Positions 47,270 through 57,254 of a stretch of 57,254 nucleotides of DNA are shown here, one piece after another. Both the position numbers and the translations under genes were made by a program. Origin of the DNA: an uncultured virus (IMG/VR IMGVR_UViG_3300025277_002331) (taxonomy: Duplodnaviria > Heunggongvirae > Uroviricota > Caudoviricetes); IMG/VR virus record IMGVR_UViG_3300025277_002331, positions 62,001-119,254 of that record. The stretch is one strand, 5' to 3'. The notes under the pieces are model-generated. The model saw only the letters and a list, made by a program, of their open reading frames with translations. It ran no database searches and was not told where the DNA came from. Each line of letters opens with the position of its first letter. Position 1 is the first letter of the stretch.

Positions 47270-47281
47270 GATACACGGGCC

Positions 47282-47750
47282 AAAGTTGCTGACTGACTTA
47301 CATTGGAACAATCTGGTTAAATAAGAAGGGACATAATGCTTTACCAAATTATCCTCGTAGACAGTGAGGGCGATGTTCGTAATGGCGGGCGATACTGTGC
47401 GACTACTACTTCTGACGTTGATATAGAGGCTGATAAGCGCGCTAAGAGGTTTACTGAGGCTTGTGGCAAAGAGGTCAACTGGGCCTTGTCTCTGGAGGTA
47501 GCCGGGTCTCCATGCAGTCCTATACTGACCCCAGAAGTCCTGTGACTTAGGTTAGTATAACTGACTACCGTAAAAGTGCTGACTACCCAACATTAGACCA
47601 ATCTGGATGGCTTAGGAAATACCCCGACTATGCACTAATATACACTCGGATACGCGAAAGTGCTGACTACCTTAAATTAACCGTATCTGGTTTGCTTAGC
47701 AAAGACACTACTTGCTCGGCCTCGAATCTGACCAGACTACGTTAGTATAG
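47282..47750. repeat. GCTGACT(AC) iteron-like repeats
   Basis: Three degenerate copies AAAGT(T)GCTGACT..ATCTGG at about 47282, 47573 and 47657, plus scattered GACTAC. Confidence 0.65.
47336..47545 (+). CDS. Hypothetical protein, only credible plus-strand gene
   Basis: Own promoter at 47242-47269, AGAAGGG RBS, no overlap with minus-strand genes. Confidence 0.6.
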   Translation: MLYQIILVDSEGDVRNGGRYCATTTSDVDIEADKRAKRFTEACGKEVNWALSLEVAGSPCSPILTPEVL

Positions 47751-47798: not shown

Positions 47799-47880
47799 GA
47801 CGTAAGTCGTTGGTGTCAAAGGGGTTAGGTCGGCGCGGTAGCGCGCGGACGTAACCTCTTGTCAGATAAGGACTTACGTC
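47799..47880. repeat. 82-bp double-palindrome R1 (inverted orientation)
   Basis: CGTAAGTCGTT-GGTGTCA-AAGGGGTTAGG-20 bp-CGTAACCTCTT-GTCAGAT-AAGGACTTACG. Confidence 0.9.
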
Positions 47881-47896
47881 AACTCTTATACATACC

Positions 47897-47929
47897 AAAA
47901 GAAAAACCCCCGCACGTTGCGGGGGGGTT
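47897..47929 (-). terminator. Intrinsic terminator
   Basis: AACCCCCCCGC-AACGT-GCGGGGGTT then T-run. Confidence 0.75.
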
Positions 47930-48022
47930 GGGGTCAGTCTTTGAGAAGTACGACTAAGCCACTAATGACAAAGCACGCACACAATACTAAGGCGAAAGCC
48001 TCCGATGCTGTGCCGTCCACGT

Positions 48023-49246
48023 TTAGACGAAAACCGCTTCGATTTCCTTCTCAGTGTAAGTATCGGCACGCTTCTTGAGAGCGTCCCAACGGTTCTCGGT
48101 CATTCCAATCAGGTCGCCACCAATCTCGTCGAACTTGACCCAACTGGTGTTGTCCAGAGTTTGACCCGCGCGGGTAACCGCGTTCACGATTCCAAACAGG
48201 TTACGGTCAGTCCGCTCATGCTGAACCCACTGAGTCAGAACCTCAGTCGATTCCTTTTTGCGGAGCTTCCTGTCGGTGCAAACCGCGCCGATGAGATTCT
48301 TCATGGAAACCTCATCGCAGGTATGAACCTTGATGCCGAGGAACCGTTCGATGCCATCCGGCAGCAGCGGCAATTGAGCTTCGATATTCTTCCTGATATC
48401 GGAAGCCAGCCCGTCAAGGTCAATCGTGCCACGGTGAACCTTGGAGATAGATTTCCCTTTGGTCTGTCCCCAGATGCAACCGTTGAGGCAGATAGCCCGA
48501 AAGATGCTGGGCATCTGAGAGACACGCCGCGTTCCGATTTCGCAATTGCCGATTGAAAGCATCCCGCCGTAATCGGTGTCGTCATCCTGCCCGTAGTCGA
48601 TAATCGTATCAGGCAGAAGCACGTTGCCAAAAATGGTGTCAGCATCACCACGCCAGTGGGAAAGCCGACCGCCCGGAAGGATGTTGCTCAACTGCTCAAG
48701 ATACCAGCGGTTGTCAATCGGAGCGTACTTCTCAGTGAGGAAGGCACGGAGCGTTCCGTCCTGATAAGTGCGGAGACGGAAATTCTTGTCCGCATCCACC
48801 CGCCGCAACGCATTCTCGCAAACGGCGACCAGCGTGTCGGCATCCTGTTCGTCCCGCTGGAATCGCTCCTGCCCGTTGTTCTTCTCGGGGTTGGTCATCA
48901 GCGAGTTGAGGAAGAACGTACTTGTGAAAGTAGCCACCCCAAACTGGTTCACGGCGTGTTGCGTTGGCTTGAACTCACGCCCGTCTGCCAACTGCATGAC
49001 GAACTCACCAGCCAGATTGACGGCGGGAGTAATCTGCGAACGGGGAACCATAACGTCCTCGCGTTCTGCAATGCCCTGCTCCAACGCTTCGAGTCCATCC
49101 TCGAACGATTCCGTCTGTGCCCACCAGTCTTTGTGGACGTGCGTATTTTTCTGGAATCCCGCGCCGGTCTGCCCTTGCAGCGTCTGCACGAATGCCCCCT
49201 CGTCCTTGGTGTCGTCGGTCGGTCGCAGCGTCGTGTAGTCGGTCAT
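48023..49246 (-). CDS. DUF932-like protein
   Basis: RAFLTEKYAPIDN, IGNCEIG, FRAICLNG, KVHRG, NLFGIVNAVTRAG. Confidence 0.7.
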   Translation of the reverse strand: MTDYTTLRPTDDTKDEGAFVQTLQGQTGAGFQKNTHVHKDWWAQTESFEDGLEALEQGIAEREDVMVPRSQITPAVNLAGEFVMQLADGREFKPTQHAVNQFGVATFTSTFFLNSLMTNPEKNNGQERFQRDEQDADTLVAVCENALRRVDADKNFRLRTYQDGTLRAFLTEKYAPIDNRWYLEQLSNILPGGRLSHWRGDADTIFGNVLLPDTIIDYGQDDDTDYGGMLSIGNCEIGTRRVSQMPSIFRAICLNGCIWGQTKGKSISKVHRGTIDLDGLASDIRKNIEAQLPLLPDGIERFLGIKVHTCDEVSMKNLIGAVCTDRKLRKKESTEVLTQWVQHERTDRNLFGIVNAVTRAGQTLDNTSWVKFDEIGGDLIGMTENRWDALKKRADTYTEKEIEAVFV

Positions 49247-49286
49247 GTTCTGACCCTTTCAAAAAAAGAAGTGTGTCAACTCACCC

Positions 49287-49315
49287 AGTGTACTCTATAT
49301 ATCGTCCAAAGTCAA
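49287..49315 (-). promoter_or_regulatory. Early-type promoter with CGAT spacer motif
   Basis: TTGACT-TTGGACGATATATAGAG-TACACT. Confidence 0.75.
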
Positions 49316-49353
49316 CCGCCCACTTCACAGGAAACGCCAAGTTTATCAGAATA

Positions 49354-49435
49354 GACGTAAACCGTTGTCAGATAAGGGGTTAGGACGGCGCCCTACCGCG
49401 CGGACGCAACCCCTTGCCACGCAAGGACTTACGTC
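49354..49435. repeat. 82-bp double-palindrome R2 (inverted orientation)
   Basis: CGTAAACCGTT-GTCAGAT-AAGGGGTTAGG-20 bp-CGCAACCCCTT-GCCACGC-AAGGACTTACG. Confidence 0.9.
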
Positions 49436-49450
49436 AATCGCTTGGAAGAC

Positions 49451-49499
49451 AAAAAAATCGGGGCGGTAACAGGCCGTGAGAAACCTGCTACCGCCCCGA
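49451..49499 (-). terminator. Intrinsic terminator
   Basis: TCGGGGCGGTAGCAGG...CCTGTTACCGCCCCGA then T7. Confidence 0.8.
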
Positions 49500-49519
49500 C
49501 AGTAGGAGCGTTTCGCTCG

Positions 49520-49870
49520 CTACGACTGGGCTTCGGCCTCGGCGTCGGCCTCGGCGTCGGCCTCGTCGGCCTTTGCCAGTGCTTTCAGTCCAGCGAGCTT
49601 GGCGAGTTCCGCGATGTTGACGCTCTGCCGTCCTTCGGTCGGCAACTTCGGCAACTTCTCAAACCCGCCGCTGGTCAGCTTGCGGTTGACAGCGTACTGC
49701 CGCTGGATGACGCTGGTCTCTTGCAGGCCAAGCGATTCGGCAATCATCTGATGCGTTCCGATTCGCTTCCCATCGTTGTCCATGAGGGCGGCAACTCGCA
49801 CCCACTCAACCACAAAGTTCTCGTCCGCAACCCGAACACGCTTCTCGCCACTCTTCTTCGCATCTGCCAT
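49520..49870 (-). CDS. Hypothetical protein with acidic AD/AE repeat tail (start MADAKK)
   Basis: GGGAGAG RBS upstream of 49870; own promoter and terminator. Confidence 0.65.
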   Translation of the reverse strand: MADAKKSGEKRVRVADENFVVEWVRVAALMDNDGKRIGTHQMIAESLGLQETSVIQRQYAVNRKLTSGGFEKLPKLPTEGRQSVNIAELAKLAGLKALAKADEADAEADAEAEAQS

Positions 49871-49946
49871 GGTCTCAACTCTCCCGTTAGGGGCCAAAAT
49901 GTTTGCGGGTCACTCGCCCGCTTATTCCTCAACTGCTTATGCTCCC

Positions 49947-49974
49947 ATTATACAAGTGTTATCGGCAGGGTCAA
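49947..49974 (-). promoter_or_regulatory. Early-type promoter with CGAT spacer motif
   Basis: TTGACC-CTGCCGATAACACTTG-TATAAT. Confidence 0.8.
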
Positions 49975-50014
49975 GGTCATTTCTGCAAGGTTTTTTGAGA
50001 ATTCCAGATTCGCC

Positions 50015-50048
50015 CGACTACCTGACTATGCTGACTATGCTGACTACC
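50015..50048. repeat. Tandem CTGACTA(T/C) repeats
   Basis: cgactacctgactatgctgactatgctgactacc. Confidence 0.7.
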
Positions 50049-50105
50049 ACCATGTCCACCGACCCGGCTGGATAAGGTGAAACCTGGGCCTAATTTACCC
50101 TAATC

Positions 50106-50187
50106 GACGTAACTCGTTATATGACAAGAGGTTACGTCGCCGCCCTAGGGCGCGGCCCTAAGTCCTTGCTATTACACGGGTTGCGTT
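50106..50187. repeat. 82-bp double-palindrome R3
   Basis: CGTAACTCGTT-ATATGAC-AAGAGGTTACG-20 bp-CCTAAGTCCTT-GCTATTA-CACGGGTTGCG. Confidence 0.85.
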
Positions 50188-50591
50188 ATATTGTGGTTTA
50201 TGGCTCGCACCGTGGGCTTACCTTCCAGAACATACATCTTAGCCCATTCCGATTCCGTCACCGGGATAGGATACTGGTCATCACACACGCCAGTACGTTG
50301 AATGAACGTATTATGCTTGTACGGGTTATACATCACAAAACAATCGCGGTCGGCTTTGAAGGTGGGAACCTCTGCATTCATTGCAAGGTAGCCCGATACG
50401 CCAGCGTGGACGTTCTTCTTGCCCTCACGCCGCACCCGTGCCTGTCCAGCCTTGCCTACCAGAAACCGACAATCCTTCAGGTGGATATAGTCGGTGTGGC
50501 ACAACACCTTGCCGCTCTGTCTCACACTCCACGTTTGTTTGTGGAGATTCCAGTAGACATAGAGCCGCTTATCATAGTTGATACAGGTCAT
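50172..50591 (-). CDS. Conserved-type phage hypothetical protein
   Basis: VYWNLHK..WSVR, RVRREGKKNVHAGV, YNPYK. Confidence 0.75.
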   Translation of the reverse strand: MTCINYDKRLYVYWNLHKQTWSVRQSGKVLCHTDYIHLKDCRFLVGKAGQARVRREGKKNVHAGVSGYLAMNAEVPTFKADRDCFVMYNPYKHNTFIQRTGVCDDQYPIPVTESEWAKMYVLEGKPTVRAINHNITQPV

Positions 50592-51370
50592 ACCGTCGCC
50601 CCTTGCTTTCTAGAATAACTCCCCTTGCCCTTGAGAGCCTTCAACGCCGTCGCCGCTTCCGTTCCCTTTGGTTGTGTCCCGTGAATCAACAGTGCGAAAC
50701 TCTCGTCCCGCCACGTCGGATTCGCCGCATGGGAATCGTCGTGGTCGATGAACAATCCGAGGTCCACCGCTTCCGCTTCGGAGAACACCACTTGAGCGAA
50801 CCGGAAATCAAAATGCTCAATCATCCAGTCATCCCGCCCACCATATGACGCCGTCAGCACCAGATTCTCGGGAATCTCACTTCTCAGAGCATCCCAATAT
50901 TTCAGGCTTTTGGTGTAGGCGTAGAACAGAACGTCCGGTCGATTATTCGCGAGGTGAATCCACGCCTTGAGATAGTTTTCGTTGAAGAAATCCCCGGCGA
51001 CGTGAATCCGAACAATCCCGGCATTCTCGGGCATCGACTTCCACAATTCCAGATACATCAACGGCCAGTCGTCTTGGTTTTCCTTCAGGGTGTCGTAATT
51101 GTGTTTGCGGAGATTGTATACGTTGGTGTACTGCACCTCTTGCGATGCGGAGAAACAACGGAACTCATTCTTGGGACCGTCTTTAATTGTCCGCTTGCCG
51201 TCGTCACCGACAACCGCTTTCGAGAGACACGCTTCCGCAAACGGGCACGAATAGCCCGACAGCAGGTCGAGGCTGTAAACCTTCCGCCCGTCGTCAAGAT
51301 ACTTGGCGATTGCCCAGCAACTCTCGTTGAGCCGTTCCGTTTTCGCGTTTGCTTTCGACCACTTCAACAT
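50588..51370 (-). CDS. GP88-family protein (start MLKWSK)
   Basis: GYSCPFA..C, CF, VRIHVAGDFF...Y...W, FYAYTKS, NLVLTAS; promoter position excludes the 51406 start. Confidence 0.75.
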   Translation of the reverse strand: MLKWSKANAKTERLNESCWAIAKYLDDGRKVYSLDLLSGYSCPFAEACLSKAVVGDDGKRTIKDGPKNEFRCFSASQEVQYTNVYNLRKHNYDTLKENQDDWPLMYLELWKSMPENAGIVRIHVAGDFFNENYLKAWIHLANNRPDVLFYAYTKSLKYWDALRSEIPENLVLTASYGGRDDWMIEHFDFRFAQVVFSEAEAVDLGLFIDHDDSHAANPTWRDESFALLIHGTQPKGTEAATALKALKGKGSYSRKQGATV

Positions 51371-51404
51371 TCTGTTACCCCTTCTTTTCTGTGTTACGCT
51401 TCCC

Positions 51405-51432
51405 ATTCTACTGTATATATCGGCAATGTCAA
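51405..51432 (-). promoter_or_regulatory. Early-type promoter with CGAT spacer motif
   Basis: TTGACA-TTGCCGATATATACAG-TAGAAT. Confidence 0.8.
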
Positions 51433-51470
51433 CCGACGTACTTCACAAAAAAAGGAATTATGACCAAGTA

Positions 51471-51552
51471 GCCATAACTCCTTATATAACAAGAGGTTAC
51501 GTCGCCGCAGTAGGCCGCCGCCCTAACCTCTGTCAGGACAAGCGTTTACGTC
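51471..51552. repeat. 82-bp double-palindrome R4
   Basis: CATAACTCCTT-ATATAAC-AAGAGGTTACG-20 bp-CCTAACCTCTG-TCAGGAC-AAGCGTTTACG. Confidence 0.88.
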
Positions 51553-52737
51553 GCTGTCGCTTCTGTTGGTTTTTCCAATCTGTCAACGCTATGTCTGTCA
51601 TTGGTTCACCCGTCCAAATATTTAGTCCCTGCTCCCATCTTTCCGCGTAAAGTTCTACATTGGGCGCTCTTTCTTTTGATAGAACATCGTCAGCAGAACC
51701 CCTCGCATCCTTGTTGGTTCCCTTAGTACCGCCCTGTATATATATGTCTTTGTTCTGGATACGTACATTATCCATTATTCAGTCCCCACAAACTGCTCAA
51801 CTCGCAACTCGCTCATCTTGACAAGTGAGAAGCTCTTGATTTCGGTATGGGGAATATCTCCCTCGGGACAATTCACATACTTGGAATCCTGAATTGTGAT
51901 AAACGGGCCTTGCGGACCCCAACCAAAATCCTTCAGTGGGCCGCTACGTCGCTTGTCGTGGTACATAAAGGAAACTTCCGCACCAGTTTGCAACGCCTTA
52001 GTCAAAAGTGGTCTAAGCTGATTCAATGTTGGGCCTGAGATTCTCATATTCCCGTTCCTCATCGTAATAGTAGATGTAACTCCACGCCTGTGCCAACGTC
52101 TCGAAAAAGTCCTCTACAAACTCGTTATTGTCATACAGCGTATACCGATAGGTAATGCCGTCCTGAATGGTCACTCTCTTGTCAAGCACCAGCCCCATGT
52201 CACTAGCAACCCGTGCAACGTCTTCAGTTCTCAACATCTGGTAAATCCCCTTCGTTCATTTCCCTAAGTTCAACATTTCCCCTTGCGTGAAGCGGAACAT
52301 TCTGTGGTCCGACTCCGGCATACCCCGGCGGGGCTTCCCACATCAAGCCCGTACTAATCACGATTTCCCCCTCAATATCTTCTGTGATATGACATGCCGG
52401 GAAGTGTTCCACGGCAGTTTGCCACAATTCGTTAAGCGTCATCGGTCTCGCCCTCTTCTCCGAACATCTCGTGCAATTCGTTAGTCTCACCCTGTGTATT
52501 CAGGCAGTCGTACATCAGGCTCATCATGGTCATGGCATGACAGGTGGAACGCTCGTCCAACTTGAACTCGTTAAGAATGAGACACAACGCTTCCAGCAGG
52601 GGCCGGTTTTCCTTGTGCATCTTCGTCATCATCGCGTGGGTGTACTCATCAATCTTATGACGAGCCTGTGCCCTTCCAAGCGTGGCGATGATGGTCTTTT
52701 CTTCAACAGTCGGCAGCATATCAATTTCCCTTTTCAA
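51533..52737 (-). other. Operon of five small hypothetical ORFs (52432-52737, 52224-52490, 52013-52237, 51775-52062, 51533-51775)
   Basis: Overlapping ORFs downstream of promoter 52746-52773; 51775-52062 has a weak WYL-like pattern. Confidence 0.6.
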
Positions 52738-52745
52738 TCTACCCC

Positions 52746-52773
52746 ATTATAAGGTATTATCGGCCCTTGTCAA
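52746..52773 (-). promoter_or_regulatory. Early-type promoter with CGAT spacer motif
   Basis: TTGACA-AGGGCCGATAATACCT-TATAAT. Confidence 0.8.
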
Positions 52774-52839
52774 CCCCTAACTTTAACGTTTTCGCTGACT
52801 ACAGACCATCCCAGACCTTCAGCCGACTGGAACAGGTGA

Positions 52840-52912
52840 GACACAGGGGCGACGAGCCGAGAGCGAGCGGGGTAGAACGTCTCTCAAAGCTCGCCGCCCC
52901 TTCAAAGTCATG
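52840..52912 (-). ncRNA. Candidate small hairpin RNA A
   Basis: Directly downstream of promoter 52919-52946; stem AGGGGCGGCGAGC/GCTCGTCGCCCCT; no credible ORF. Confidence 0.45.
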
Positions 52913-52918
52913 CCTATC

Positions 52919-52946
52919 ATTATACTCTATATCGGCAAAATGTCTA
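52919..52946 (-). promoter_or_regulatory. Early-type promoter with CGAT spacer motif
   Basis: TAGACA-TTTTGCCGATATAGAG-TATAAT. Confidence 0.7.
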
Positions 52947-52973
52947 GTGCAGCATTAGCTACATTTGGCATTT

Positions 52974-53055
52974 TACGTAAGTCGTTGTGTGGCAAGAGGT
53001 TACGTCGCCGCACTACCGCGCGGTCATAACCCCTTGCTAAACAAGGAGTTATGTC
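52974..53055. repeat. 82-bp double-palindrome R5
   Basis: CGTAAGTCGTT-GTGTGGC-AAGAGGTTACG-20 bp-CATAACCCCTT-GCTAAAC-AAGGAGTTATG. Confidence 0.9.
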
Positions 53056-53060
53056 CAACG

Positions 53061-53610
53061 AAAAAACCCCACTAAGTGCTTCCATGCGTTAGCATCATAC
53101 TACTTAGTGAGGTTTTGAGGCAAGAGGTTGAGGAAAGGGCAACTCCAAACCCACTTGCTTTGTATATGGACGGGTGGGACTTATGTATTACCCACAACTT
53201 TTCGGGGACAGATATGTCCACCCTGTGAAGGGCTTCCCTACTTTGTACCACTTCTAACAGCCTCATCCATTTGGACATACTCTGTTAGATGTGTGCCTTA
53301 CCACCTCTGCCTAGCTTTGGTGTTCGGCCACCGTCCTACCAACAGGGAGCTACCCTGTCAGTGTTTGTTTCGTGTTGTCAAAGAAAGTGAAAAACGGTCG
53401 CGGGGTAAGCCTTACCCCGTAAATCCTAAACTGTCTTACCAATCCTGTCACGTTCATTGATAACCGAAGTTATCTCTGGTTGTGCGAAGAAGGCTTTAAC
53501 TGGACAACCGTCTTTTGCGAGAAGGATACTCTTTGTGGGAACGACCACTTAGAGCCGTCCACCCTTCTCTTTGAGAGACGAGTTACAATTTCTTGTTCCT
53601 TGTCTCTCAT
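53061..53610 (-). ncRNA. Candidate ~550-nt structured ncRNA
   Basis: Bounded by promoter 53617-53644 and terminator 53061-53116; consecutive hairpins including a cUUCGg tetraloop. Confidence 0.55.
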
Positions 53611-53616
53611 GTCCTC

Positions 53617-53644
53617 ATTATACTCCCGAATCGCCGGGGGTCAA
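53617..53644 (-). promoter_or_regulatory. Early-type promoter with CGAT spacer motif
   Basis: TTGACC-CCCGGCGATTCGGGAG-TATAAT. Confidence 0.75.
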
Positions 53645-53672
53645 GGTTTCACTGGATTTTTTTTCGGATTTT

Positions 53673-53855
53673 TCAACCGATGCTCACCGTGATGGTTTTC
53701 GGGGGAGTGCTGCCGAGGGCGTGCTTCTGGACATACAGAGGTCCAATCACAGCCTGACTACCGTCCTCGACTACTTCCTGAAACCGGACGGTGTTCTTGG
53801 TTTCCTTCTCCTGCTCGAACTTCAACTCGTGCTTTTCCATGTCGCCCTCTTTCAA
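53673..53855 (-). CDS. Small hypothetical protein (start probably MEKHEL)
   Basis: KETKNTVRFQE...IGPLYVQK; downstream of promoter 53879-53906. Confidence 0.6.
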   Translation of the reverse strand: MKEGDMEKHELKFEQEKETKNTVRFQEVVEDGSQAVIGPLYVQKHALGSTPPKTITVSIG

Positions 53856-53878
53856 AAGTGGTTTGTTTCAACTCCCCC

Positions 53879-53906
53879 ATTCTATAGTATATATCGTCAT
53901 TGTCAA
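53879..53906 (-). promoter_or_regulatory. Early-type promoter with CGAT spacer motif
   Basis: TTGACA-ATGACGATATATACTA-TAGAAT. Confidence 0.8.
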
Positions 53907-53934
53907 CCCCGCCCTCTACTGTTTTCATCAGATT

Positions 53935-54016
53935 GTCGTAAGTCGTTGTGTGGCAAGAGGTTACGTCGCCGCAGTAGGGCGCCGCCCTAACCCCTTGTCG
54001 CATAAGGAGTTAGTCG
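53935..54016. repeat. 82-bp double-palindrome R6
   Basis: CGTAAGTCGTT-GTGTGGC-AAGAGGTTACG-20 bp-CCTAACCCCTT-GTCGCAT-AAGGAGTTAGT. Confidence 0.9.
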
Positions 54017-54673
54017 TCTTCCATCCCATCGTGTTCGGCCTTCCGGGTCACCTCAAGATGAGCCTGTGCGAATTCGCCCTTCGGCACTTTTACCGCCCAC
54101 GAATGACGCCCGTATGAAATCGTCAGATGCTCGAAGTTGTCAATAGGTCTCGCGTTCCTGTCGCTTGGCATGCTCACGATAGCTCTATGTAGGTTTTGCA
54201 TTATTCTTTTTCCCCTTCCACGAATTCGATGTTGTAATCCGTCTCCGCATCGCCTACGGGGTCTTCCCCGAACATCTTGTCAAAACATTTCCCGCACGTT
54301 CCGCTGATGAGAATTTCCCGCTCATCCGTAGACAGGTACGGCATAGCATCCTGAATCAGTGTCCCGGTTTGCCAACGAAACACGTCGTCGTCGTTCACTT
54401 TCAGGACGTGTGTATCTCCACAGATACGACAGGTTGCTCGCAAGGTATTGTCAGTCAATTTCATCAGTCAATTGCCCCTTCACCAATAAACAGTTCTGCG
54501 TAGAAAATTGCATCCGCCTCATCCGCACAGTCGGCAATCATGTCCATCAGGAAATCATCCGGGCCATCCGCAATTGGCGCCCACACTTCGTACACACTGT
54601 ACCGGGGAACCCAAACAATCTCGACCCCGTCCTGATTCCAAACCAACTCGCCGTGATGAGTTCTGATAGCCAT
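54010..54673 (-). other. Operon of three small ORFs (54464-54673, 54201-54464 zinc ribbon, 54010-54201)
   Basis: Coupled TGATG/TAATG junctions; CRIC...IQDAMPYLS..ERE.LISGTC..C motif in the middle ORF. Confidence 0.7.
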
Positions 54674-54707
54674 TGTCTATCCCCTTCGTTTGCCCTTGTT
54701 ATCCCCC

Positions 54708-54735
54708 ATTATAAGGGTATATCGTCATAGGTCAA
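54708..54735 (-). promoter_or_regulatory. Early-type promoter with CGAT spacer motif
   Basis: TTGACC-TATGACGATATACCCT-TATAAT. Confidence 0.8.
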
Positions 54736-54773
54736 TCCCACGCTGCACCTATTTCGTAGATTTTAGCAAAATA

Positions 54774-54855
54774 GTCGTAAGTCGTTATATAGTAAGGAGT
54801 TACGTCGGCGCGCTAGGGCGTTGCCATAACCCCTTGTCATAGAACAACTTAGGTC
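54774..54855. repeat. 82-bp double-palindrome R7
   Basis: CGTAAGTCGTT-ATATAGT-AAGGAGTTACG-20 bp-CATAACCCCTT-GTCATAG-AACAACTTAGG. Confidence 0.9.
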
Positions 54856-54906
54856 AACACAATACAAAGGAAAGCAAACACAAGCCAACTCCACAACGCT
54901 ACTCTA

Positions 54907-55251
54907 TCATTTAACAATGCCGTGTACCTCACCTGTTTTGCTCCGTTTTACTTTACAGCCTTCCTTGTACGCTTTTACTTTAACTCGCACCTGTCCCCAA
55001 CCATGCCGTCCCCGGTTATATTGGGAGATAAGGTCGAGCAGGTTTTGTGGTCTTACGTTTGAAATTGTCAACCACCTCTTATCGGTAATTTTGTGGACAA
55101 TCTCAAACCCCACAGCAATGACGTTTTTTGGCTTTATCTTTCTTCCAGAGAACTTGTCCACGCCTTTGCGTTTAATGATTCTACGCCTTGCCATCGGTTT
55201 CCACCTTCTTTCCCTTGTCACGACATTCCCGTTTCCACGTTGAGCGGTCAC
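54907..55251 (-). CDS. Basic hypothetical protein (start likely MARRR)
   Basis: Lys/Arg-rich ORF; AAGGTGG RBS before the internal Met. Confidence 0.5.
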   Translation of the reverse strand: MTAQRGNGNVVTRERRWKPMARRRIIKRKGVDKFSGRKIKPKNVIAVGFEIVHKITDKRWLTISNVRPQNLLDLISQYNRGRHGWGQVRVKVKAYKEGCKVKRSKTGEVHGIVK

Positions 55252-55354
55252 AGTAGTTCCACCCCTCGCCCAGCAGAGTCTTCAAAGCCTGATTGTCGGC
55301 GTGAGTGGAATCGGCAACCTTCTTGAACTTGTCGCCTTTACGCAGAATCTTCAT

Positions 55355-55804
55355 CTAGTTGTTCCTGTAGTTAGAGGTAAACTCGTCAGAAAACGGGTCT
55401 TGCTTGGACAGATGGTTCATCATCTTGTTGCCGAGGCTGTTTGGGTTTTTGGTAGCGTCCAGTTGCGAGGCCACATTGATGAAGTCAAGCACCTGCGAAA
55501 CATTGAGGTGTCCACAAACGTCATCGTAGAACGTGTCGCTGTCATCCTCACCGATAGGTCCGGTGAATCCCGGCACGGCAACCCACGACAGGTTACTACC
55601 AGTAATGTAGGCAGCACACTCGGCGGTGTTGGAACCCCAATGGTCGTCGCCGTCAATCGCCTTTTTCGGGGCGTCGAAGGCGGCATTCGACACGTCGCTG
55701 TCGCAGTAGTTGCCCGGACCAAACTGGACGGAAACCGTCACGCCGTTAGGCAAGTCCAGTTGGAACCCCTTGTTGTCACAGATACGCATATCCCTGTCGG
55801 TCAT
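55355..55804 (-). CDS. Hypothetical protein (start MTDRDM)
   Basis: NGVTVSVQFGPGNYC...AECA motif; AGGGG RBS. Confidence 0.65.
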   Translation of the reverse strand: MTDRDMRICDNKGFQLDLPNGVTVSVQFGPGNYCDSDVSNAAFDAPKKAIDGDDHWGSNTAECAAYITGSNLSWVAVPGFTGPIGEDDSDTFYDDVCGHLNVSQVLDFINVASQLDATKNPNSLGNKMMNHLSKQDPFSDEFTSNYRNN

Positions 55805-55929
55805 TCTTCTGCCCCTTCTATTTCCACCACCCAAGTTTATCAGCCAGCCAGCATACCCCTGCCAGCAATATCAATCCTATCAGAAATGTCCCCGGTGTCA
55901 ACCATTCAGGTGGCATTTTACCACTCCTT

Positions 55930-56166
55930 TTATGTCCCTATCACTTTCCAGATTTTGACTCGCTTGTTAATTTTGGCATTGAACCCAACACCACCGCCGG
56001 TCAGGTTGGCGTAGTCAATCGCCACCGGCAAATCCCCCAGCAGTTTTTCATCCCCGAGGTGGATAGTGATGTATTGGTGGTTCCGGTGGGCTGTCAATGG
56101 GACCAACTCGAAGTTGTGTTGCGCGCCCCTGTCAAACAGGTCGCCGTTCTTTGGTTTCTTCTGCAT
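55930..56166 (-). CDS. Hypothetical protein (start MQKKPK)
   Basis: Downstream of promoter 56201-56228 with AAGGG RBS. Confidence 0.55.
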   Translation of the reverse strand: MQKKPKNGDLFDRGAQHNFELVPLTAHRNHQYITIHLGDEKLLGDLPVAIDYANLTGGGVGFNAKINKRVKIWKVIGT

Positions 56167-56200
56167 CGTGTTGCCCTTGGCCCTGTCTTGTATGTTCCCC

Positions 56201-56228
56201 ATTATATACTATTATCGTCCAAAGTCAA
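56201..56228 (-). promoter_or_regulatory. Early-type promoter with CGAT spacer motif
   Basis: TTGACT-TTGGACGATAATAGTA-TATAAT. Confidence 0.8.
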
Positions 56229-56314
56229 ACCTATACTTGAGGAAAATCGCTTGACCGCTGACTTTTGCTGACTACAGACTATCCTAGACTTCCAGCGGGC
56301 TAGACTACCTGATA

Positions 56315-56390
56315 CAAAAGAGGGGCGGCGGGTCAATGTGCGCCAACACTCGCCGCCGCCCCGTGTTCCCCGACTGTTCAATCAAAGAAC
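56315..56390 (-). ncRNA. Candidate small hairpin RNA B
   Basis: Downstream of promoter 56397-56424; stem GGGGCGGCGG/CCGCCGCCCC then TCTTTT; no ORF. Confidence 0.5.
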
Positions 56391-56396
56391 TCCCCC

Positions 56397-56424
56397 ATTA
56401 TATACTAGTATCGACAGATGTCAA
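56397..56424 (-). promoter_or_regulatory. Early-type promoter with CGAT spacer motif
   Basis: TTGACA-TCTGTCGATACTAGTA-TATAAT. Confidence 0.8.
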
Positions 56425-56440
56425 CAAATTCTTTAGCATT

Positions 56441-56522
56441 TCTCTAAGTCGTTATCTGACAATAGGTTACGTCGCGGCCCTAGGGCGCGGTCCTAAGTCG
56501 TTGATATGAAACAACTTAGGTA
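56441..56522. repeat. 82-bp double-palindrome R8
   Basis: TCTAAGTCGTT-ATCTGAC-AATAGGTTACG-20 bp-CCTAAGTCGTT-GATATGA-AACAACTTAGG. Confidence 0.9.
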
Positions 56523-57135
56523 AAGAGAAATGGAACGCCGGGGGTTGGTCACCCCGGAACAGTCACTTGCGATTCGAGACCAACCAGTCTCCCCCCGTAC
56601 AAGCACGTCTGCTCGCTGCCGGGTTAATCCTCGCAAGGGGTTGGGACTGTCGGATATCCCTAAGTTTAAATCCCGTTCCATGTAAGGTACTAGCCCTATT
56701 TATCTCCACCCTTCTCGGGTTTGTAGGCGTGGCTAGATTTACGGCTGAGCCGCTCTGACGCCTCGTTGTTCACCGGTATACACCGGCTACATAAAAGTGC
56801 TGCCCAAGGTGGGATTCGAACCAAACGCTACTAGAACGTTTACGGGGTGAATGAGGTGTGTACACACCCACCTGTATTCGTACAAACACAGGCCCGCCAC
56901 GATACTAAGGCTGTCAGAATTCCCCCAGCGATTGTACAGTCGCTATCAGGGAAAACCCGCCATGCTCATGCCACCGAGCTACAAGGGCTTCACTTGTTTC
57001 AATTGTAAAAGAGCTTGTAAGGTGGAGCGGCTGCCAGTTTCCCGGCCCTACTCCCAGTGTTGTGCCGCGTTTATACCCAGTCGATGGCGGTTAGGCTTTC
57101 ACTTCACCGATAGGGAGCGGCGTTGTTTTGTATGT
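56523..57135 (-). ncRNA. Candidate ~610-nt structured ncRNA with tRNA-like domain
   Basis: Fills the module between R8 and promoter 57141-57168; D-arm-like and T-loop elements; long-range helices; no credible ORF. Confidence 0.55.
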
Positions 57136-57140
57136 CCCCC

Positions 57141-57168
57141 ATTATAGTAGACTATCGACATTCCACAA
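57141..57168 (-). promoter_or_regulatory. Early-type promoter with CGAT spacer motif (weak -35)
   Basis: TTGTGG-AATGTCGATAGTCTAC-TATAAT. Confidence 0.65.
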
Positions 57169-57205
57169 GCCCAGTCGCCACCTATTCCATAATTTTATAG
57201 GAATT

Positions 57206-57254
57206 GTCGTAAGTCGTTGCTATATAAGGGGTTACGCTCGCGCCGTACCGCGCC
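57206..57254. repeat. 82-bp double-palindrome R9 (truncated by window end)
   Basis: CGTAAGTCGTT-GCTATAT-AAGGGGTTACG-CTCGCGCCGTACCGCGCC. Confidence 0.85.

Follow-up and report, generated by a model that had tools for sequence, protein, structure and literature searches.

Paired palindromic sites in the early region of an uncultured phage clade, probable docking sites for a host IHF-type protein

Inverted arms around a 7-bp centre, or sites placed between gene cassettes, are found in lambda att, dif and integron attC, and the TF1 protein of phage SPO1 is a homodimeric DNABII protein with specific sites. Lambda pL is reportedly another of the promoters assisted by IHF; to our knowledge the phages described so far rely on a single IHF site or a few of them, and we know of no arrays of paired symmetric sites for the Borrelia protein Hbb. 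These are the systems closest to the element described here, a paired palindrome repeated in the early region of an uncultured marine tailed phage (IMG/VR record IMGVR_UViG_3300025277_002331, Caudoviricetes), of which we analyzed positions 62,001 to 119,254 (57,254 nucleotides, hereafter the window). In Escherichia coli gltBDF, IHF is reported at -75 to -113 upstream of a sigma-70 promoter (PMC1784095), and at the early promoter Pe of phage Mu it is described as acting from a similar upstream position (PMC3820752). Hbb is reported to bend DNA by ~160 degrees (PMC2475624; structure PDB 2NP2), and repeated PeSL (promoter and stem-loop) cassettes are described in T4-type phages (PMC2839356, PMC4122927). 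We propose, with a probability of about 0.6, that the paired sites are docking sites for a homodimeric host protein of the IHF type (DNABII) that serves the early promoters.

Nine repeats are present in the window. Each is composed of two 29-bp palindromic sites with a period of 49 bp, and the consensus of the single site is cgTAA-N4-TT-N7-AA-N4-TTAcg. None of the elements is assigned to a strand:

47801..47878, element 1: a pair of 29-bp sites that forms the left edge of the array; the next 140 bp downstream hold no promoter
49356..49433, element 2: lies 40 bp upstream of promoter 49315
50108..50185, element 3: promoter at 133 bp, beyond a block of short repeats
51473..51550, element 4: lies 40 bp upstream of promoter 51432
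52976..53053, element 5: lies 29 bp upstream of promoter 52946
53937..54014, element 6: lies 30 bp upstream of promoter 53906
54776..54853, element 7: lies 40 bp upstream of promoter 54735
56443..56520, element 8: lies 18 bp upstream of promoter 56424
57208..57254, element 9: incomplete at the end of the record, whole in a contig of 99.95% identity

An earlier reading of this sequence (the original prediction) had described nine 82-bp copies with invariant spacing and a central TA in the linker. The starts and the geometry were borne out: the eight complete copies share the layout 11-7-11 / 20 / 11-7-11 with zero indels, and TA occupies positions 10-11 of the 20-bp linker in all nine. The conserved core is 78 bp long, the figure of 82 bp counting two loose bases per side, and nine is not the size of the array, as the record stops inside the ninth copy. 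With the single-site pattern (two mismatches or fewer) we obtained 16 matches in the window, 15 of them inside the array, against 0.14 expected. A profile scan extended to the entire record of 119,254 bp gave 17 sites scoring 23-39 bits, while the next best score was 5.4. At the array the GC content climbs from ~0.41 to 0.49-0.56.

The full array was recovered in a 153-kb metagenome contig (loci L370-L382), which is 99.95% identical to the record over 17,260 bp. It contains 53 sites, arranged as 24 pairs with the 49-bp period and five singles, over 16.8 kb, and the central TA is kept in 22 of the 24 linkers. Past the array transcription changes strand, and a terminase gene follows ~7 kb further. 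In viral contigs at least 184 stretches matched a pattern with a variable gap between the sites. The period of the pairs is constant in each genome and differs by lineage: 53 bp (136 pairs), 52 bp (24), 50 bp (23), 58 bp (18), 48 bp (11) and 41-42 bp (13). The 481 sites collected from relatives have the same symmetric profile, with information at TAA, TT, AA and TTA and almost none in the centre. Among the matches listed, the sites were confined to a single block of 7-22 kb in all ten phage records; the spacing between pairs tracks the gene content (0.25-3.7 kb) and has no fixed period. Searches for a cultured relative found none: the DUF932-like protein encoded in the array matched none of 50,697 phage records, the DNA of the array gave one 61-bp match, and the RecA matches reached only ~27%. 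Rfam contained no match at the elements, and no description of them was found in a literature search whose reach excluded supplements and most subscription papers. Thus, the repeats are genuine, widespread in uncultured phages and apparently undescribed.

Complementarity in the elements is at or below chance. The variable positions of the arms pair less often than expected by chance (in the window 0.375, with 0.551 expected; in the full array 0.394, with 0.584 expected), and in the 49- and 53-bp lineages the self-complementarity of the linkers does not exceed that of controls; therefore, the elements are duplex protein sites and not hairpins. A hairpin, cruciform or attC reading was rejected on these data, together with the lack of PF00589 described below. 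It should be mentioned that the linker of the 58-bp lineage (L132-L138) does form a hairpin, one with tetraloops (fold energy -6.9, against -2.8).

On sequence grounds each site appears best read as one fully symmetric bending site of the IHF type, with AA-N4-TTR on either side of TT-N7-AA. The IHF consensus is given as AA-N4-TTR plus WATC (10.1101/382655), and in the 106 half-sites each position of its AA-N4-TTR part agrees at 98-100%. The TT and AA steps flanking the 7-bp centre are 9 bp apart. They may have the same register as the kinks of the lambda H' site. DNABII proteins are reported to kink DNA at two steps separated by the same 9 bp (PMC2475624, PMC5829579). The four arms of each element had been assigned to one multimeric protein; they are better understood as two sites, each probably bound by one dimer.

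In E. coli IHF-beta, residues R42/E44/R46 are reported to clamp the TTR side (10.1101/057489; for TTR also 10.1101/382655), so that a homodimer with such a clamp would want TTR on both sides. It would read both arms alike, as with Hbb and TF1, which would explain the symmetry of the sites. DNABII proteins of the E-x-R type, aligned to these residues, were present in six of six planctomycete genomes among the matches listed, and the clamp was seen in 12 of the 30 best loci of a second planctomycete search. The alpha-type motif was absent from all 42 readable planctomycete loci (12 of 18 in one search, 30 of 30 in the other). The HU/IHF-like gene whose presence in the phage had been considered was not detected: PF00216 was absent from nine of nine phage records, and a custom DNABII profile run over ~136 of the 153 kb revealed no phage gene. 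In this respect the phages differ from SPO1, and the candidate is instead the IHF-beta-type protein of Planctomycetes.

All payload genes of the array lie on the minus strand and are served by sigma-70-type promoters with a CGATA spacer motif. Each interval holds from one to three promoter-like sites, slightly more than the one or two first counted:

49287..49315, minus strand: sigma-70-type promoter with the CGATA spacer motif
49947..49974, minus strand: sigma-70-type promoter with the CGATA motif
51405..51432, minus strand: sigma-70-type promoter with the CGATA motif
52919..52946, minus strand: sigma-70-type promoter; a second at 52746-52773
53879..53906, minus strand: sigma-70-type promoter; a second at 53617-53644
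54708..54735, minus strand: sigma-70-type promoter with the CGATA motif
56397..56424, minus strand: sigma-70-type promoter, 12/12 consensus; others at 56201-56228 and 55874-55901
57141..57168, minus strand: promoter with the CGATA motif, perfect -10 and weak -35

The gap between the nearer site and the -35 hexamer is 18, 29, 30, 40, 40 and 40 bp in six copies of the window and 133 bp in one, and the centres of the sites thereby fall at about -66, -77 and -88 relative to the start. Distances from the site to the CGATA motif cluster at 29/39/50/61 bp. In this phage the phasing has a Rayleigh R of 0.95 at a period of 10.5 bp (n=11, p 5e-5), this small set fitting periods of 10-12 about equally well; in the clade R is 0.69 (n=90 non-redundant) and 0.67 without the main peak, where relatedness inflates the p-values. 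An independent promoter profile gave the same ladder of distances. In total 347 pairs were compared: 111 had a promoter on one side, none on both sides and 236 on neither. The CGATA motif itself, within a 16-bp spacer, is near-invariant across the clade (e.g., window 56397-56424).

Thus, of the functions offered by the original prediction, the architectural or activator one gained support, as did the resemblance to IHF, from the symmetric profile of the 481 sites, the promoter phasing and the planctomycete E-x-R proteins. With IHF-assisted promoters the elements share AA-N4-TTR, the position ~66-90 bp upstream and the dependence on the face of the helix. They differ in that the sites are fully mirror-symmetric, meet WATC poorly and form rigid pairs repeated 24 times in one region, the binding here being predicted. 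We suppose that each 29-bp palindrome would be one double-stranded docking site for a host homodimeric DNABII protein, probably of the planctomycete IHF-beta-like kind. The AA/TT steps around the 7-bp centre would be its two kink points, and identical subunits would read the mirrored AA-N4-TTR arms; two U-turns would be held at a lineage-fixed distance by the GC-rich linker. The element would occupy the gap that separates the end of an early transcription unit from the host-type promoter of the unit after it. Its promoter-proximal site precedes the start by ~66, 77 or 88 bp, in every case on the same face of the helix. The most likely effect of the bent complex is to strengthen and insulate the early promoter beside it, in a region that is used first and is probably terminally repeated.

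Dyad symmetry and helical phasing would suit any dimeric activator, WATC is weak, and many phage open reading frames have no family; hence the binder might have another fold, be it a host protein or one delivered with the virion, in the same position and role. We consider this unlikely, as a 29-bp footprint informative only at AA, TT and TTR matches bending sites with indirect readout, and bacteria of several phyla carry the motif at tRNA/integrase junctions and ahead of an HU gene.

The 11-7-11 layout raised another possibility in the original prediction, namely core sites at which a tyrosine recombinase shuffles cassettes. The enzyme might be encoded by the phage or be a host XerC/D-like one. 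Single bacterial copies at tRNA ends, two of them beside integrase genes, would agree with it, and so might one relative (L347) that has a different linker, a different second site and ~100 extra bases at one element, the left break of which is unplaceable and might fall in site 1. The tyrosine integrase family PF00589 was, however, absent from 16 of 16 phage records (eight complete) and from the single record of an additional search, and PF00239 and PF01797 from five of five each. The 7-bp centres are not uniform (14 different among the 17 sites of the window and 24 among the 53 of the full array), no attC-type hairpin is formed, and among the contig joints listed from four runs there was no same-strain joint at an element, the listed joints resembling other phages at shared motifs. 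In contrast to tyrosine-recombinase cores and attC, the elements thus come with no cognate enzyme found, differing centres and a mostly kept order of modules, and the one crossover that could be mapped lies outside the 7-bp centre. We regard site-specific recombination as very improbable.

That crossover belongs to a 1030-bp tandem duplication in the full array (an assembly artefact is possible), and it falls in a 45-bp patch just outside site 2. It would fit a further explanation, in which the elements are PeSL-like homology seams that let a RecA-like protein of the phage gain, lose and reorder early cassettes. Paralogous small open reading frames recur within the array and a RecA gene is present. 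Gene adjacency is kept in 62% of cases within a module (1536/2488) vs 40% across an element (154/387), as estimated with crude gene calls from 26 representatives of 36 arrays. On the same basis the comparison of module order, where breakpoints at the elements had been looked for, revealed mostly conserved order: it is kept in 14 of the 16 arrays holding both marker modules and swapped in two, and elements have been gained and lost within otherwise conserved gene runs. Of 22 breakpoints in the 53-bp lineage, five are no more than 50 bp away from a site (9% expected) and one is inside a site (4% expected). Locus L383 has an extra 325-bp gene whose two ends fall within a short homology, 80 bp away from element 9, and two short-unit repeats vary among near-identical genomes. 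A fixed geometry with drifting sequence is, moreover, the opposite of what homology needs. Like PeSL, the elements recur between genes where terminators meet promoters, in a plastic region with small orphan genes, beside sigma-70 early promoters, with occasional recombination between copies. PeSL, however, consist of a promoter and a stem-loop, whereas here the element is separate from both, avoids pairing and has the geometry of a protein site; the repeat contains no stem-loop, the terminators being separate and adjoining an element in four of the eight intervals. In contrast to the T4-type PeSL phages, this phage has a PolIII-type replisome. A primary role as seams is therefore quite unlikely in our estimate. 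As order is mostly kept and the excess of breakpoints is weak, the elements are occasional seams and not a shuffling machine. If they dock a DNABII protein, homologous recombination at them would be a by-product, since elements and flanks are repeated.

Read depth in run X5 was 27 for the contig to the left of the array, compared with 41-54 in seven contigs inside it; the direction was the same, with noise, in X15 (6.7 vs 8.0-12.8) and X16 (3.3 vs 5.8-14.9). The most economical explanation suggested by these contig mean depths is that the array region is a long direct terminal repeat. In these phages the elements would mark, at the sequence level, the early region and the probable terminal repeat. 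Near both ends of the array and in some modules we also observed clusters of short GACTA-type motifs (window 47280-47750, 50018-50050, 52795-52820 and 56267-56310), which could be packaging or end-processing marks; a 9-bp unit at 50030 differs in copy number between near-identical genomes.

The confinement of the sites to one block per genome, which the depth suggests to be repeated, would also be expected if their role were mainly structural: ~50 sites would fold the first-entering terminal repeat into loops that aid entry, shield the DNA or soak up host protein, the phasing being secondary. Some pairs and triples have no promoter, and in a toy three-dimensional model the commonest periods of 52-53 bp put the two bends in phase. 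We nevertheless find such a role improbable, because the spacing of pairs follows gene content and strict promoter phasing would be unnecessary. A more inclusive conjecture, which we hold to be unlikely, is that the terminal repeat is sequence-programmed phage chromatin, where ~50 high-affinity sites would recruit host homodimeric IHF, wrap the entering DNA into paired U-turns, ratchet its entry, shield it, drain the host protein and place all early promoters on an open face simultaneously.

We next consider the bacterial genomes. The strict single-site pattern was found in 83 stretches of bacterial species genomes; of the 80 that are named, 25 belong to Planctomycetota (seven from one assembly), 14 to spirochaetes, nine to Verrucomicrobia and four to Fibrobacter. 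With a looser pattern, 13 of 61 Planctomycetota genomes yielded 21 sites, against four for the reversed control, and three of 61 Gammaproteobacteria yielded three sites, against nine for the control, each set of 61 including a centre genome chosen for having a site. In 12 of the 93 scanned bacterial loci the site lies at the 3' end of a tRNA or tmRNA, twice beside an integrase gene, and one bacterial site precedes an HU gene. Such settings are consistent with IHF-type sites. The bacterial single sites are self-complementary (0.886 vs 0.686), unlike the phage ones, and may double as hairpins. Near-perfect single palindromes 3' of tRNA or tmRNA genes (L208, L212, L213, L227, L230, L233, L239, L241, L256, L262, L269, L403) are possibly IHF-type sites flanking att that double as terminators. 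The suspicion that the motif is a host repeat of the repetitive extragenic palindromic (REP) kind scattered without relation to modules did not hold, since the phage sites are paired and form one block, while the bacterial copies are rare, single and hairpin-like. REP and repetitive IHF-binding palindromic (RIP) elements (bacterial interspersed mosaic elements, BIME) with a RAYT were likewise rejected, given the confinement to one block and the absence of the Y1 transposase PF01797 from the five records. We infer that the host group is Planctomycetes. The tmRNA tag and sequence, the promoter pattern, the sigma-factor homologs and the aldolase did not single out a host, aldolase clusters being most frequent in Pseudomonadota.

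Several points weigh against the proposal of a host IHF-type protein. The WATC half of the E. coli consensus is poorly met (94/27/5/51% per position), with at most one mismatch in only 27 of 106 half-sites; it is better met in the 41-, 50- and 58-bp lineages. As the period varies from 41 to 64 bp across lineages, in and out of helical phase, no single shape can be universal. By the strict pattern, 236 of the 347 pairs have no promoter, and neither element 1 nor several inner copies have one within 140 bp. Thirteen of 48 loci carrying the DUF932-like gene contain no site or one. Proteins with E-x-R are not restricted to Planctomycetes, being present in Verrucomicrobia, Treponema, Fibrobacter and Bacteroidota as well, and the view of the 153-kb genome covers ~136 kb. 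As to the host, the tmRNA tag is not diagnostic, and the exact phage promoter pattern was found in only one of 61 planctomycete genomes (none of 61 gammaproteobacterial ones). Relatives with the DUF932-like gene and no sites in the fetched flanks (L275, L277, L278, L280, L281, L306, L310-L313, L315, L320) may have other hosts or other boundary elements.

The remaining features of the array are its terminators and payload:

47907..47925, minus strand: terminator-like hairpin, ends module 1 right before element 1
49457..49500, minus strand: terminator-like hairpin right before element 2
56538..56557, minus strand: terminator-like hairpin right before element 8
48023..49246, minus strand: DUF932-like payload gene, 407 aa (PF06067 E 0.0046, below the cut-off; phrog_1362)
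50172..50591, minus strand: L5 gp82-like payload gene (PF25735)
50588..51370, minus strand: GP88-family payload gene (PF17338)
53060..53420, minus strand: structured RNA payload (fold z -3.8), ending in a long hairpin right before element 5

Several intervals had been thought to end in a terminator, and terminator-like hairpins do adjoin an element in four of eight (three by the terminator scan and one by folding); over the whole region there is no excess of matches (12 vs 10.8). A structured-RNA payload, also part of the original prediction, is supported at 53060-53420, within which 53164-53360 (minus strand) gives a full-length weak match to the manA RNA (25 bits vs the 55-bit cut-off, E 0.0013). 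The case is weak for 56530-57135 (minus strand), a promoter-driven stretch without a convincing open reading frame that is common in other marine contigs and has a fold z of only -1.65; L383 has an extra 76-aa gene at its start. Elsewhere the record encodes RecA, RNR, PhoH, a PolIII-type polymerase, three sigma-like genes, tmRNA and a large glycan block. The latter (G000:C1 ~20-51 kb; window 19000-42600) is a very large set of glycosyltransferase, methyltransferase, sulfotransferase and NeuB genes, and the same region also holds proline dehydrogenase, aldehyde dehydrogenase, class III aminotransferase, aldolase and tmRNA.

If the proposed docking of a host IHF-type protein is true, a large clade of uncultured phages uses a host nucleoid protein as the foundation of its early program, through dozens of designed bending sites. 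It would also predict the recognition sequence and the homodimeric mode of an uncharacterised IHF-beta-like protein in Planctomycetes and related phyla, and the elements would offer a clue to the hosts of these phages.

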